NCBI GenBank assembly: GCA_041572575.1 | Contig: JBFFSH010000028.1 | Span: 1 to 30,313 of the forward strand | DNA length: 30,313 bases | Direction of reading: 5' to 3' | DNA from: Thermodesulfobacteriota bacterium | Lineage (GTDB): Bacteria; Desulfobacterota_D; UBA1144; Nemesobacterales; N074bin48 | Part shown: positions 6,001-12,000 of the stretch, piece after piece | Layout of the letters: every line of letters begins with the position of its first letter | Position numbering within the stretch: position 1 is the stretch's first letter | Made by a program: the position numbers

Positions 6001-9000
6001 CAATGAGTCATTAAAAATTGCAGGTCTTTTAGAACACAGAAATAAACATACATCTGAGCTTTCGGGAGGATTAAAACAGCGGCTTTCCTTTGCAATTGCC
6101 CTTATTTCCGACCCCTCAGTACTCATACTCGATGAACCCACTTCAAACCTGGATGCATCAGCAAGACTCGAACTTATGAAGCTTGTAAAAAAACTTAAAG
6201 AAACCGGAAAAACCGTACTGTTTTCATCGCACCGTATGGATGAAGTGCAGTTTCTCGCAGACAGGGTGTATCTACTAAAAAAAGGCAGAGTTATAAAGCA
6301 AAGCGCTGAAAATGAACTTACAAGACAGCTTGGACTTAAAACAAAAATCATTGTCAATGTGAATGTGACAGATAACCAAAGGACTATAGAAATCCTTAAA
6401 AACTCAGGGTTCAATCACATTAGTAAAAACGGGGCGGGAATTTTAGTGAGCATTGACAATGATGATAAGACTGAGGCACTAAAAAAGATATTGGATAGCG
6501 GTATAGCAATAAATGATATCAACATAGAAGCTCCATCGATGGACGAGATAATGAGGTCTGTATAAAGATGAACTATACAAATATATTACTTATTACAAAA
6601 AAGGAAGTTAAGGAATCCTTTCAGAACCGCTGGTTTATTATTTTTACACTCGCATTTTCCATACTCGCTTTTATGCTCTCATATGTAGGAACAAGAAATC
6701 TGGGCTACTCTGAAATATCGGGTTTTGGCAGGACTACGGCAAGCCTCATAAACCTTGCGCTTATGCTTATCCCCCTCATGGGTCTTCTACTCGGTTCTAT
6801 TACCATATCAGGAGAAAGGGAAAGGGGCACACTGCATTATTTGCTTTCACATCCCATTGGAAAAAAAGAGGTTTTTGCAGGCAAGTATGTGGGGCTGTTT
6901 TTTTCACTTGTGTTTACCATTACAATTGGATTTGCACTGGGTGGAATAGCGATATTCTTTAAGACAGGCTCTTCGGATATAGGCAAGTATATTTTAGACC
7001 TGCTAATTACCCTTATCCTCGCATCATCCGTGCTTAGTATCGGGATACTTATTTCTGTATGTACAAAGAAAATATCCAAGTCCATAGGAATAGCCATTTT
7101 TGTCTGGTTCTTTCTCATCATACTGAGTGATCTGGGTATAATAGGATCGGTAATTTTATTTAACCTTGGAATAGAACCGACTTTTTATATAACTCTTTTA
7201 AACCCTACGGAGGTCTATAAAATACTTTCAGTACTGGTACTCAGTACACGCTTTGAAATACTGGGACCAGTGGGTATTTATATTTTTAATACAATGGGCA
7301 GATACGGATCGCTTGTAATATTATCTGGTGTTCTTGCACTATGGTCTGTTGTTCCACTTATAATTGCGTATCTATATTTTTGCAGATTTAAAAGAGAAGA
7401 AATATGAAATATCCTATTTTGATTTCTTTGATCCTATTTGTATTATCATGTTCTAAGGAAAGTGAACTACTCCCTGTAGAGATAAAGTACGGACAAGACT
7501 TATGTGCTGCCTGCTCGATGATAATAAGCGAAAAGCAGTACTCGGCGCAATATATATTATCCGACGGCAGTATAAAAAAGTTTGATGATATAGGATGTAT
7601 GATAGAACATTTAAAACAAGAAAAAAATGAACGTGGTAATATATCTGCAGTATTTGTTCGGGATTACATACACAAGAACTGGATAAACACAGATATAGCC
7701 CACTTTGTACATAGTAATAAAATTATTACACCAATGGGACATGGTATAGCCGCCTTTGGAACTAAAGAAGATGCAAAAAATATTGAGACCGAAATCAAAG
7801 GTGAATATTTAGGTAAACTTGATATATTATTAGATAAATAACTTTCTCAAAATGCTATATATACAATGACTACAGCCAGTGTTTTGAAAATTGTTACAGA
7901 CATATGTCACTCTAAATACGGTTTTTCATTTTTATAACTATTTTTAATTTTAAAAGTGCAAAACGCATTTTATTAACAGTAAAGACTACTAACTTTCATT
8001 AACACTATATTTTGCCGAGGGCACGCATTGGGAATATAATTGAAATAAATAATGGCGGCGGGAGGACTCGAACCTCCGACAGGCGCCTTATGAGAGCGCT
8101 GCTCTACCTCTGAGCTACGCCGCCAGAGAAGGTAGTAAATCAATTTTGACCCGCAATTATATCACTTTGTATGCCAGATTCAATAAGTGTAAAATTTTTA
8201 GGATCAATTACTTGACATATTAAGAAATTTACTTTATTTTAATATTGTAAGTTAATTGTAAGACTTAATATATAATATATTTAATTAGTAGTACGGTAAC
8301 ATCCTCCATCCTCCTTAAAGTGGGAATGTTTTCAAGAGCTGAAAACATTCCCACTTTTTATTTTGTCTCAATTAAAACTCTGAGAACTTATGAAGGAAGA
8401 TAGTAAATCAAATTAAAGAAATCTAATATATTAAGTCGGTTTTTTTAAGTCACAAATCAGCTGTTTGGACTGTCTGCTTCATAACTGCTGTCAGCAGATT
8501 CTGCGCTTCCGTTATAACTGGAAGACTGCATAAGGCATTTACCGTTATAAATACCGCCATCTTCGATGATAAAAGATTTGGAATTGATATCACCTACAAC
8601 AATCCCACCGCTTTTTATTATCAGCTTTTCTGAATGAATATTCCCTTCTACCCTGCCATGCACAGAAATCTCTGCTGCTTTTACCTCTCCGGATATAATC
8701 CCGCCTTCTCCCACAACAAGTGTTCCCTGACTGTCAATATTTCCTTTTATAGTACCGTCAAGTCTTGTAGAAGTGGGTGAAGTAAGGTTTCCCTCAAAAA
8801 TACACCCCTGGCCGATTAAAGTTATTACGTCGCTGCTCATATAGTCACTCACTGTTTGAGTAATATCACTACTACTCTTTTTTTTATTTAATATTCCCAT
8901 AAGATTATTTAAATGTTAAATACTCTCTCGGATTTACTTTTTTCCCGTTTTTAATGATTTCATAATGCAGGTGTGGTCCTGTGGATCTGCCAGTAGAACC

Positions 9001-12000
9001 GGCTTTACCTATAAGCTGACCTGTTGTGACCTTTTCACCTTTTTTAACCTTTAATGAGTCCAAATGACCGTATAGTGTTTCATATCCGTTGTTGTGCTTG
9101 ATGATTACAGTTTTACCATAGCTCATATACCACCCGGCGTGCTTAACTTTTCCATCAGCTGTAGCTACTACCGGCTGGCGCATATTGGCATCAAAATCTA
9201 TACCTGAATGAAATGCGTACTTTTTAGCAAACGGGTCTTTTCTGTGTCCAAAACCTGAATTCACCTTGGCTTTTATGGGTTTGCCAAATGGGGTGCTTTT
9301 CATAATCTGGAAAAGATCATTGATATCTTTTTCCATAAAATCCATGTATGACAGGCTCCATCTGTCATCAGGAATATACTCTCCACCTATAGAAAGATCT
9401 TTATTAATTCCTTTTTTATCGAGAAGGCTCTGCATATCAAGCAGTTTATCTTCTATATCAACCAGCCTTGCCTGAAGCACTACTTTATCCGAGCTCATTA
9501 CATTTAGAAGATTTGCCTGATTTACAAGTAGGTTCATGGCCTCTTTCTTCTCACCTGCATAAGATTTAGCTTCATTATAAAAATTAAAACTAAAAGCAAA
9601 AGAAACAAAAGATATTAGAATAAAACCTAGAACAACACCAGCTGCAATTTTTATATGTTTATAGTCAATAGATAATGATTTTGTCCCCGAACCATTTGAG
9701 CTTACGAGCAAAACTGTCAAACGATTTTTATCCATTACTCTCCATCTCCTTATAACACACCCGATTAAATCATTCTTTAATGACTAATATACGCCTTTAT
9801 ACCTTAACCCCGGTCTTGAAAAGAATAATGCTGTGTTATATAACTCTAATTATTATGATTTTTTAATAATATTGCAAGAGCCCACCTGCTCTATCTACAC
9901 TTTTATAATACAAAAACACTTAGAAGTCAATACAAAATATTTTATTAGCTCTATTTTATTTTTATACTTGACAAATAAAGTAATTTACTTTATTTTTATT
10001 AACAGAGTTAATGAAAATACTTAAATCATCCTCCATCCTCCTTTAAGATAACGGGAATGGTTATTGACCCAAATAATCATTCCCGTTAATTTTTAACTTA
10101 GTACATCATATAAATCCTATCATCAAGATTTCCGCATAATATGAAAAGTGATAATTATTATATGCAGCTTGCCATAGATGAAGCAAAAAAGGCTAAGATA
10201 AGAGGTGAGGTGCCTGTTGGATCAATAATTGTTGGCAATGACGGTAAAGTATCCGCAAAGGGCCATAATTTATGCGAAGAACTATCAGATCCGACCGCAC
10301 ATGCAGAGCTAATTGCTATAAGAAAACTCTCAAAAAAATTAGGGTCCTGGAGGCTTGACGGTACTACTCTGTTCTCGACTCTGCAGCCATGCCTTATGTG
10401 TATGGGTGCAATAGTAAATGCGAGGATAGGCAGACTGGTTTACGGTACGGATGACCCGGAATATGAAGGAACAAATTATATATACGAATTAGAAGATATT
10501 TATCCCCTTGTTAAAAAATTATCCGTTACGAATAATGTATTACAAGAAGACTGCGCTTTGTTGTTAAAAAGTTTTTTCAGTGCAATAAGAAAATAGAATA
10601 TTATTTCTTAAACATTCCCATGAAATCTCTTACTATATTGCCGTCTTCAGCCCCTGCAAGCTTCTCAAGCTCACCGTCATCAAGCCATACTCCGTTACAA
10701 TCATCACACCTATCAATTGCAACGCCTCTAAACATTAATTCATGCAGTTCACCTGCGCATTTGGGGCATTTGAGATAACATATTTCCTTAAGCTCAGCAC
10801 GCTTTTTTTTAGCCTGCTCGTCATGAAGCCTGGCTTCTAACCTCTTTTTCTTCTCTGCATCTTCTTTTGCAAAATATTCTTCTTCTGATTTACTGATTTT
10901 ACTGTTACTCATAATTTTTTACCTTTTAAATAGAATATAAAATTATTATATTAACCTATGATGATTCTGCTCTCTGCCTGTTACTGCTCTCAGGTATTAT
11001 TGTAATGCTTTTTTTATCTCCATCAACCTTTGTATCATACCTGATTCCCTTTTCCCGCTTAAGCGTAATATAGGTTATCCTTCTCTCATAAGCCGACATG
11101 GGGCTTAATGTTACAGGTTTTCTGTTTTTTCTTACTTTCTTGACCGAATCCCTAACCATCTTTGAAATGGAATCCTCTTTTCTCCTTTTATATCCTTCAA
11201 TATCGATATAAATCCTTTTGCCTTTTCCTGTTTCAGTGGTTCTGCTCGATATTTTGCCTATAAGAAACTCAAGGGATTTTAACATCTCACCGCTCTTGCC
11301 GATTATAAGCCCTCTGTTATCAGACATTTTTACATCAAGCTTGATCCTGTCTGCTGTTTCCCTTAAGTTCACAGAGTAGTCTTCGCAAAAGTATGAAAGT
11401 ATATCATCGAGCACTTTTTTGGCCTTCAGACCCTTTTCACTCACATTTTCCTGAATAATCTTTGCCCTTACCTTTGCAGGTCTTCCCCCAATTCCAAGCA
11501 CCCCTTTAGATCCCTCATTTAATACTTCAATATCAACCTGGTTCCTTGTAACACCCATCTGTTCACAGGCATTAATAATTGCCTCTGAAACTGTTTTACC
11601 TTCAACCTCAAGTTCAACTGACATCGTATAAATCCTCCATTAATGTTTAGCAGTCTTTTTGTTAACATAGAGCTGCTGAACAATCGAAAGTATGTTGCTT
11701 ACAGTCCAATACAGAACAAGCCCCGAAGGCAGACCCCAAAACATGACTGTAAATATGATAGGCATAAACTGCATCATCTTCATCTGAAGCTCCATTTGAT
11801 CCGACCCGGGTGTCGTCATAGGAGTCATTTTCTGAGATATAAACCACGATACACCCATTGCAAGAGGAAGGATTCTAAAAGGTATTCCTATTGCTGGTAT
11901 ATCAAACAGCACTTCAGCTTCGGACAGATCGTTTATCCATAAAAACGCACTATGTCTTAAATCGATAGAATTTAGCAGTACTTCGTAAAGTGCAATAAAC

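Follow-up and report, generated by a model that had tools for sequence, protein, structure and literature searches.

The window analysed here, a 30,313-nt stretch of a Dadabacteria genome (G000), carries two of the three stand-alone units of an sRNA family in that genome, each made up of a σ70 promoter, an unpaired C/U core and a covarying terminator (Table 1). The 20-mer core matches with one mismatch at 8300 and exactly at 10027, with no match in 100 shuffles. A third exact copy lies on the minus strand of contig C3, and a copy with one mismatch at C8:36610. The stand-alone units with promoter, core and intrinsic terminator proposed in the earlier note were recovered at both places in the window, while its length of ~95 nt is not right for copy 1, which is predicted to span ~117 nt. 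Since its A/U tails are symmetric, the terminator of copy 1 may also end the convergent M23-bactofilin operon.

Table 1 Positions of the two sRNA units and of predicted target sites in the window
Feature	Position	Strand	Remarks
Copy 1 σ70 promoter	8212..8240	+	TTGACA −35 at 8212-8217, 17-bp spacer, TATTTT −10 at 8235-8240
Copy 1 operator O1	8220..8236	.	Inverted repeat TTAAG-N7-CTTTA inside promoter spacer; same element in gspC and degP promoters
Copy 1 operator O2	8252..8268	.	32 bp past O1, just within predicted transcript; inner arms unpaired as RNA
sRNA copy 1	8248..8364	+	Predicted ~117 nt; start inferred from −10; model match 8268-8364, E 6e-13; fold
Copy 1 core CAUCCUCCAUCCUCCUUAAA	8300..8319	+	Anti-SD; anti-AUG 7 nt from second CCUCC; sequence read directly
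Copy 1 intrinsic terminator	about 8317..8364	+	Symmetric A/U tails; also placed at 8317-8357
Copy 2 σ70 promoter	9968..9996	+	TTGACA −35 at 9968-9973, 17-bp spacer, TATTTT −10 at 9991-9996
Copy 2 operator O1	9976..9992	.	TAAAG-N7-CTTTA
Copy 2 operator O2	10008..10024	.	32 bp past O1
sRNA copy 2	10004..10096	+	Predicted ~93 nt; model match E 5e-18; fold
Copy 2 core CAUCCUCCAUCCUCCUUUAA	10027..10046	+	Sequence match
Copy 2 intrinsic terminator	about 10049..10094	+	17-bp stem, U-rich tail; also placed at 10049-10088
Predicted target: nosZ ribosome-binding site TTAAAGGAGG	1075..1084	+	Prediction only
Predicted target: leader of 217-aa nos-cluster membrane gene (3603-4256)	3580..3597	+	Prediction only

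The RNA family is ~90-117 nt in size and spread across the order. The covariance model matches 98 of 101 order genomes, with one to seven matches per genome. Model R1 retrieves all five copies named in the earlier note, the C70 copy most weakly (E 8e-6), and the exact 17-mer of the core is present in 55 of 120 phylum genomes with none in the reversed control. The statement that the RNA is absent from family f6 proved wrong: the model matches five of the six f6 genomes, three of them with promoter, variant core and terminator. The copies said to lie in 3′ UTRs, on C8 and C70, were matched too, but they are sporadic and not conserved within their gene family, where 6 of 30 genes have a partial motif. 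No Rfam family other than tRNA reaches its gathering score in the window, and the best E-value over 8150-10150 is 0.18. Matches in viral contigs numbered zero. We found no literature on an sRNA or regulon of Dadabacteria, a widespread uncultured group, and neither the core sequence nor the operator in published papers.

The core is one linear stretch outside the hairpin, with an unpaired probability of 0.90 in folds of 108 copies. It is the exact complement of an SD plus AUG, with CAU 7 nt from CCUCC, and variant cores are still C/U-complementary to AGGAGG. The reported covariation of the terminator was reproduced: 92.0% of cells are paired, 12 of 13 pairs are double-changed, covariation is 0.61 versus 0.29 when shuffled (0/500), and at most 57.6% of cells pair when the stem is slid.

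It could be asked whether the element is not stand-alone. It might instead be a cis leader or attenuator of the gene that follows, a CsrB-like GGA RNA, or the ribosome-binding site of a small ORF encoded on the other strand. Read in reverse, the sequence is AAGGAGGAUGGAGGAUG, with SD, AUG and GGA motifs, and the gene that comes next has the same orientation in 56 of 75 flanks with a match. However, the positions of promoter and U-tract identify the C/U strand as the one transcribed, opposite-strand ORFs have a median of 7-9 codons (110 copies), and CsrA (PF02599) was not found in the 96% complete genome G000 although controls were positive. Moreover, 19 of the 75 downstream flanks are convergent, window copy 1 among them, and neighbours vary by copy. 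This explanation is largely refuted and very improbable. A CsrB/RsmZ decoy was likewise rejected, as the GGA motifs lie on the non-transcribed strand and CsrA was not found. With its own promoter, covarying terminator, a core 90% unpaired, varied gene contexts, no conserved opposite-strand ORF and no CsrA, the central earlier reading, that this is a new sRNA family with several copies per genome whose anti-Shine-Dalgarno core lies exposed, holds in every test run.

The cover by metatranscriptome contigs, offered before as evidence of transcription, speaks neither for nor against expression, as the contigs look like DNA. The check used assembled Logan contigs from four runs, which cannot show ends, strand or level. 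Cover in X1 is flat at a depth of about 8, in genes and spacers alike. X9 has a single 151-nt contig on copy 1 (8199-8349, depth 2.5), which begins 13 nt ahead of the −35. X8 covers only the M23 gene and X15 begins at 8340; neither reaches either core.

The best clue to the function of the sRNA, missing from the earlier note, is a tandem operator that it shares with gspC and degP. A 17-bp inverted repeat, T(T/A)AAG-N7-CTT(T/A)A, lies in the −35/−10 spacer of nearly every sRNA promoter and is repeated 32 bp downstream. Across 103 anchored loci the −35 and −10 columns are nearly invariant and of σ70 type (TTGACA and TA(T)(T/A)(T)T at 16-17 bp), with O1 perfect in 99 and O2 exactly 32 bp on in 96. 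Since O1 is untranscribed and the inner arms of O2 pair in only 19-42% of 62 sequences, the repeat is a DNA site. The −35+O1 pattern is as widespread as the core (54 versus 55 of 120 genomes), and in G000 it matches five times, at the three sRNAs, at gspC and at degP. Retrieval from GTDB yielded 120 loci with 114 distinct exact full promoters, all of which precede either the sRNA (82, namely 80 plus 2 truncated) or gspC of a type II secretion operon (32, assigned by tblastn in 26 cases and by the N-terminus in 6).

The same promoter stands ahead of gspC-gspD-gspE across the order. A looser form precedes degP in five genomes; this link is patchy, with the promoter within 1.5 kb in 2 of 30 degP loci and three more connected via an upstream operon. 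A membrane leader ending in RSPP, which like degP is an export-quality feature, also carries the common promoter in several genomes. The gspC AUG follows O2 directly and has no SD. The sRNA and gspC have promoter and leader in common up to the base before this AUG, and the sRNA may derive from a duplicated gspC promoter and leader. In f6, gspC was found in none of six genomes, though f6 keeps the RNA. The composite site was not found in 400-kb samples of family f9 and genomes G100 and G012, and isolated operators are no more frequent than in the reversed control. Two further candidate members were rejected: of 15 loci of an RpoS-like sigma gene, 4 have sites with ≤1 mismatch and these sit at unrelated positions, and the glnB site is mainly limited to group g1. 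Given the promoter that it shares with gspC and degP, the sRNA looks like the non-coding arm of a secretion/envelope regulon under the control of a repressor.

Several candidate regulators were considered. NtrC sites have a 5-N7-5, 32-bp geometry. NtrC was rejected because glnB has a different, TGCYTAA-type site in 16 of 29 loci and a σ54 promoter in 19 of 29, while no HTH_8 protein was found in genome G026 and only a 147-aa frame in G089. The OmpR family was also rejected, with one PhoB-like member per genome in five of five genomes. The XRE protein at C22:25216 is a weak lead. It is conserved (115 of 120 genomes, all f9 included) and its gene is accompanied by those for a membrane protein and an FxLYD lipoprotein. 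A perfect site lies upstream of the XRE gene in G000 and G030, whereas 10 other loci have none, and a site of this kind precedes only 8 of 2509 G000 ORFs. An Atlas search with the protein returned only generic HTH_3 clusters.

One possible alternative is a metal-sparing sRNA, of the kind exemplified by RyhB, FsrA and IsrR, under a DtxR/MntR-family repressor, which would lower metalloproteins such as NosZ and cytochromes at metal scarcity. A DtxR-family gene, located at C3:60786 in G000, is present in 27 of 27 order genomes tested and in none of three f9 genomes, matching the range of the RNA, and adjoins degP in several genomes; the nos genes, moreover, are among the top predicted targets. The half-site CTTAA is one base off the IdeR CCTAA (PMC8464063), and TroR has tandem motifs about 30 bp apart (PMC10783522). 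However, the 17-bp spacing differs from that of the IdeR palindrome (19 bp) and of the TroR motif, which is shorter, a separate TTTAG-N6-CTAAA palindrome occurs twice at the mntR-like locus of G000, and none of the 114 composite promoters precedes a metal-uptake gene, which leaves this alternative quite improbable.

Predicted mRNA targets point to exported proteins. The leader of the 217-aa membrane gene is complementary to nearly the entire core apart from one bulge (−26.8 kcal/mol, rank 4 of 2552). The predicted targets were confirmed in identity as M11, S8, two OmpA and three porin genes; high-ranking predictions also include the nos genes and the cytoplasmic rpsD, rpsR and atpD, which were recognised by their N-termini. 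In G000, 8 of 10 genes with a TAAAGGAGG RBS encode soluble exported proteins versus 35 of the 131 remaining AGGAGG genes (p=0.001), the motif having been chosen after inspecting G000 and the localisation classifier and start calls being crude. In 30 other genomes, 13 of 23 TAAAGGAGG genes are exported versus 6 of 24 for AAAAGGAGG (p=0.04), and a bias to any envelope protein did not replicate there (15/23 versus 14/24, p=0.77). Family f9 is uninformative as a negative control, with 17 exported of 360 genes. The bias to exported targets pointed out in the earlier note is strong in G000; outside it the bias recurs only modestly, and it is partly general to strong SD sites.

These data also bear on the possibility that the RNA broadly dampens mRNAs with a strong SD as part of a feeding/starvation switch. 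Once scavenging enzymes begin to be secreted, it would lower the translation of many abundant proteins, cytoplasmic ones included. The RNA and regulon would be unchanged, and the envelope bias would be a by-product of SD strength. Indeed, the exported share climbs with plain SD strength (365/2388 overall, 43/141 for AGGAGG, 12/21 for AAAGGAGG), and 8 of the 23 TAAAGGAGG genes of relatives are cytoplasmic. Pairing to the sRNA adds to 16S-tail pairing in G000 (chi2 9.3) but adds nothing in the 400-kb samples of G100 and G012 (chi2 0.0 and 0.1), so that outside G000 the 16S tail accounts for as much. Furthermore, the constant regulon member is gspC, which is not a stress gene. Against this, none of the 10 TAAAGGAGG genes of G000 and none of the 5 in the G100 sample is cytoplasmic, and degP and the RSPP-ending leader stand on the common promoter in several genomes. 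We regard a broad damper as unlikely.

Another possible mechanism is that the C/U core acts as a decoy or sponge for a protein (e.g. Jag/KhpB) or a G/A-rich partner RNA rather than pairing with mRNA ribosome-binding sites. The 9-nt unit AUCCUCCUU is invariant in 54 of 54 aligned copies, partly an effect of selection, and is more rigid than multi-target pairing strictly requires. Copy 2 has a Jag/KhpB gene 0.9 kb away. Neither ProQ nor Hfq was found; Hfq was searched in G000 with PF17209, with positive controls, after the LSM model gave no match in bacterial controls. On the other hand, the SD-plus-AUG complement at 7-nt spacing is the csRNA pattern (PMC3091779), C/U complementarity to AGGAGG is kept in variant cores, and no partner RNA was seen. 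We give a decoy little credence.

In its apparent mode of action the RNA looks like the csRNAs or LhrC and is a member of neither family. Streptococcal csRNAs belong to the CiaR regulon together with htrA and, in the accounts given, resemble this family in having several siblings per genome, unpaired anti-SD and anti-AUG stretches before the terminator, co-regulation with the HtrA protease and a host without Hfq (PMC3091779, PMC4507080). CiaR, as outlined in one of these reports, activates via a direct repeat, TTTAAG-N5-TTTAAG, upstream of the −10 (PMC3091779), whereas here the repeat is inverted (TWAAG-N7-CTTWA) and its placement in the spacer and at about +5 is a repressor layout. This family also lives in a Gram-negative host, has the type II secretion operon as its constant partner and shows no Rfam or sequence match. 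A test for a CiaR ortholog found a single OmpR-type regulator in each of five genomes, located beside pstS in G000. In Listeria monocytogenes, LhrC1-5 of the LisRK system are described as CU-rich siblings that repress surface proteins during envelope stress by pairing to AG-rich SD regions (PMC5880928), a complementarity shared here with predicted targets only. The description gives LhrC three CU-rich regions and two-component (LisR) activation; this family has one linear core, and the only OmpR-type regulator is PhoB-like.

Fusobacterial FoxI, by its published summary, represses without Hfq, with pairing predicted across an SD (PMC9546586). FoxI and the Vibrio MicV/VrrA (PMC6694218) are presented as non-coding arms of Gram-negative envelope responses that repress membrane or outer-membrane proteins, like the arm proposed here; those accounts give them sigmaE promoters and another seed, whereas this family has a near-consensus σ70 promoter gated by tandem operators. 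We looked for the sigmaE-type promoter of envelope sRNAs (MicA/RybB/MicV/FoxI) and found the σ70 type instead. SisA-D and MmgR, alphaR8 members of Caulobacter and Sinorhizobium, are portrayed as siblings with a common anti-SD 10-mer and broad targets, as here, but as Hfq-associated, alphaproteobacterial and under differing transcriptional control (PMC12559287), whereas one operator serves all stand-alone copies here and Hfq was not found. Membership in alphaR8 was rejected, as PF17209 was not found in G000 and there is no Rfam match. Cuckoo/CcsR RNAs were also rejected. They are defined by CCUCCUCCC in hairpin loops; the core here is linear and outside the hairpin, and no Rfam match exists.

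Together, our results favour, at a probability of roughly 55%, trans-acting sibling sRNAs that serve a secretion/envelope regulon of this Dadabacteria order as its non-coding arm. One dimeric putative repressor would sit on O1 and O2 and shut off transcription. An inducing signal, most probably stress on export or on the envelope or a demand for secretion, would free the repressor, whereupon the type II secretion system would rise together with DegP and the sRNAs. The single-stranded AUCCUCCUUUAA core would then pair without Hfq to strong SD sites, best to U/A-AAGGAGG, and stop 30S loading. As exported proteins (porins, OmpA, secreted proteases, NosZ) are over-represented among genes with strong SD sites in these genomes, cargo load would fall while export and quality control rise; gspC, without an SD, would escape silencing by the sRNA. 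The promoter switch held in common with the secretion machinery suggests that the RNA lowers exported proteins when secretion is on. It is tempting to speculate further, though on balance doubtful, that this is a secretion-monitoring regulon unlike described systems, in which a candidate XRE repressor and tandem operators gate the type II secretion operon together with DegP, a leader resembling an RSPP arrest peptide, and an RNA that works without a chaperone, mimics the 16S 3′ tail and selectively silences strong-SD cargo while SD-less gspC escapes.

For Dadabacteria, the analysis yields an RNA family that spans the order, an operator of 17 bp and a small regulon. If the proposed reading is true, the logic of CiaR/csRNA, LisR/LhrC and sigmaE/MicA, in which protease goes up and exported cargo goes down via sibling anti-SD RNAs, would have arisen once more, in a lineage that is Gram-negative and has no Hfq, ProQ or CsrA, here tied to type II secretion and run by derepression.

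The C/U-rich anti-Shine-Dalgarno (SD) core occurs twice in the window and in none of 100 shuffles. Both copies carry TTGACA-17-TATTTT on the 5' side; on the 3' side, each has a long hairpin that runs into a U-rich tail. Beyond the window, which is contig C28 of the source genome (G000), contig C3 holds a third exact core copy and contig C8 a near match, and the Rfam search was again empty. The sigma70-type promoter, terminator and further copies described in an earlier note were all found again, as was its count of 55 out of 120 phylum genomes (16-mer in the note, exact 17-mer here; control 0). 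A GTDB-wide core scan found 111 stretches. Of the 80 titles listed, most belong to Dadabacteria or Desulfobacterota-type MAGs and some carry other taxon labels; a Rossellomorea match has neither promoter nor terminator. Viral sequences gave no core match.

A family model built from 54 diverse copies matches 98 of 101 genomes of the order (Nemesobacterales, Dadabacteria) and, weakly, 2 of 19 genomes of f9, a family outside it. Family f6, from which the sRNA had been thought absent, refutes that claim with five model matches: three have a promoter, a CUCCUCCU core variant and a terminator, and two are 3' ends only, without promoter. The three best matches in group g19 are full units. AUCCUCCUU is the invariant part of the core, while the first repeat unit drifts among copies.

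Across 108 copies, the mean predicted sRNA length is 94 nt and the mean unpaired probability of the core 0.90; the terminator is the sole structured part, with strong covariation. In sequence, the core is complementary to an SD followed after 7 nt by AUG, and opposite-strand ORFs are short and not conserved. The stand-alone units are very probably RNA genes, and the sRNAs probably work through SD pairing. Searches of G000 (96% complete; controls positive) detected no Hfq, CsrA or ProQ; a Jag/KhpB gene is present in this genome. Metatranscriptome contigs, once cited for expression, are assembled sequences that resemble DNA or bypass the cores, and no longer count as such evidence. The shorter 3'-UTR copies (C8, C70) do sit behind two small secreted protein genes, paralogous to each other, but even a partial motif accompanies only 6 of 30 genes of that family; they are therefore local recruits, not a family feature. 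Secreted proteins of 86-94 aa, without Pfam match, are encoded by 37 of 101 order genomes, with 1-5 copies in each, and a GGAGG site precedes 28 of 30 of their genes, which are likely targets as judged from sequence.

Of 116 distinct core loci, 103 were aligned by their -35 element; the other 13 are truncated, off by one base, degenerate or chance matches. The inverted repeat T(T/A)AAG-N7-CTT(T/A)A in the promoter spacer (O1) is perfect in 99 of these 103, and a second (O2) follows exactly 32 bp later in 96. Since O1 cannot be RNA and the inner arms of O2 are unpaired, both are sites in DNA. They lie in phase, three turns from each other, and cover the core promoter and start site, a layout suggesting that their regulator would be a repressor.

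The -35+O1 pattern is found in 54 of 120 genomes (3 control matches) and marks three sRNAs, gspC and degP in G000. Forty further loci, among the matches listed, comprise gspC-gspD-gspE (20), sRNA copies, mostly variants (9), a membrane ORF of ~135 aa ending LPLRSPP (6), degP (1, plus 1 at a contig end whose leader is nearly identical), chance matches inside ORFs (2) and one unclassified locus. In genomes G008, G010 and G013, degP comes after the operon of the LPLRSPP ORF. Among the GTDB matches listed, at least 114 distinct full promoters precede an sRNA (82) or gspC (32) and nothing else, and the gspC AUG lies 0-5 nt after O2, without SD. In 13 genomes without an exact 17-mer match, gspC retains both sites in 3, one good site in 4 and degenerate sites in 6. 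No gspC was found in genomes of f6 or f9, in agreement with type II secretion as a trait distinct for terrestrial clades in the part of a Dadabacteria preprint consulted (10.1101/2020.06.22.165886). The operator, in several spellings, appears in no paper of the literature searched. GspD of relatives has 710-990 aa and fewer LysM repeats than that of G000.

As O1/O2 regulators, NtrC and a single PhoB-like protein were rejected. Upstream of glnB (stretches L415-L444), a conserved sigma54 promoter is accompanied ~80 bp upstream by a TGCYTAA-N3-type palindrome, likely the NtrC site of the order. A DtxR-family regulator would fit by range, its gene tracking the sRNA (27/27 order genomes versus 0/3 f9 genomes tested); against this, the family's sites are spaced differently from the O1/O2 repeat in the portions consulted of PMC8464063 and PMC10783522, and the mntR-like locus of G000 has its own DtxR-type palindrome. 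The TTTAG-N6-CTAAA palindromes on C7 are likely a DtxR/MntR operator separate from O1/O2. A conserved XRE regulator is present in 115 of 120 genomes, its operon also being intact in one f9 genome, and has a perfect operator site upstream in group g1 only. With its membrane protein and FxLYD-like lipoprotein it possibly forms an envelope-sensing triad.

Coordinates of features (L, retrieved stretch; C, contig of G000)
Feature	Position (strand)	Remarks
sRNA copy 1, core	window 8300	after nos cluster and tRNA; bactofilin convergent
sRNA copy 2, core	window 10027	M23 peptidase on one side, tadA-like deaminase on the other
nos cluster	window 634-7841	cytochrome c, nosZ (signal-like N-terminus), nosD, ABC transporter, nosL
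464-aa ORF	window 14184-15578	no Pfam or NCBIfam match
MazF/PemK-like toxin gene, small upstream ORF	window 20131-20757	ordinary type II toxin-antitoxin pair
XRE operon	L145:4217-5825 (C22:25216-26824)	
TTTAG-N6-CTAAA palindromes	C7:42273, C7:43144	before exported-protein gene and 135-aa mntR-like gene
Two weaker operator-like repeats	L143:4150-4200 (C72, gspC-gspD spacer)	43 bp apart, upstream of gspD
GspD secretin	L143:4223-9000(+) (C72:4223-9079)	~1600 aa, six LysM repeats before N0 domain
86-94-aa secreted proteins	L149:3341-3601(+), L150:3458-3724(-)	
LPLRSPP ORFs	L182:4009-4419(-), L183:1569-1997(+), L206:1583-1984(+), L208:3954-4385(-), L172:1630-2028(+), L201:4000-4410(-)	
117-aa protein ending RAPPVFS	L623:1931-2284(-) (C6:10930-11283)	N-terminal hydrophobic segment; directly upstream of unannotated 461-aa gene

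In the target survey, gene starts and protein localisation were called crudely. Exported proteins become more frequent with SD strength in G000 and two other genomes (G100, G012); among these three, sRNA pairing adds to 16S pairing in G000 alone. The native 16S gene ends CCTCCTTTT on C91 and in four relatives (the mature end may differ); a U ahead of AAAGGAGG therefore gives the sRNA an advantage over 16S. C100 bears a differing 16S 3' end and may be contamination, as the C91 tail agrees with relatives. Genes with U-AAAGGAGG sites in G000 encode envelope proteins in 10/10 cases versus 60/131 other AGGAGG genes, and soluble exported proteins in 8/10 versus 35/131. In 30 other genomes, with 8 and 6 short-frame matches excluded, the counts are 13/23 versus 6/24 for soluble exported (p=0.04) and 15/23 versus 14/24 for all envelope proteins (p=0.77). 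The proposal that the best-matching sites belong to exported proteins holds in G000 and is weaker elsewhere; the trend is modest and in part generic. Predicted targets near the top of the ranking, U-AAAGGAGG genes among them, include proteases of families M11 and S8, two OmpA, three porins, NosZ and a UreI-type channel; two nos-cluster leaders are among the predicted targets.

The LPLRSPP ORFs (132-143 aa, no Pfam match) share the operator promoter, with a 200-aa protein and degP downstream in three genomes. They are poorly conserved. Near the N-terminus they have a hydrophobic segment, and their C-terminal (L)PLRSPP is invariant; they are candidate RAPP-like ribosome-arrest leaders, and the RAPPVFS-ending protein is likewise a candidate arrest peptide. 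RAPP-like arrest peptides have been described, most such motifs do not stall, and the portion of the main text consulted names neither Desulfobacterota nor Dadabacteria (PMC10987492).

Cuckoo, RyhB/FsrA/IsrR and NtrC site geometry form the general background for comparison. From the parts consulted of the respective papers, the sRNAs would act like csRNAs alongside htrA under CiaR (PMC3091779, PMC4507080), LhrC (PMC5880928), FoxI (PMC9546586), MicV (PMC6694218) and SisA-D (PMC12559287); the family fails the tests that define each of these. The literature searched, which leaves out most subscription papers, describes neither the core sequence nor any Dadabacteria/Nemesobacterales sRNAs.

The sequence evidence consists of sRNA-type gene anatomy, conservation across the order and a promoter-operator that the sRNA genes have in common with gspC and sometimes degP. 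We then propose a model in which a repressor would hold the promoters shut until derepression, the sRNA core would pair with SD sites to block translation, and this block would relieve export load. That the family is part of such a secretion/envelope regulon we hold at a probability of roughly 0.55. The sibling-sRNA family is real and apparently undescribed, and its link to type II secretion at the operator level makes it more interesting.
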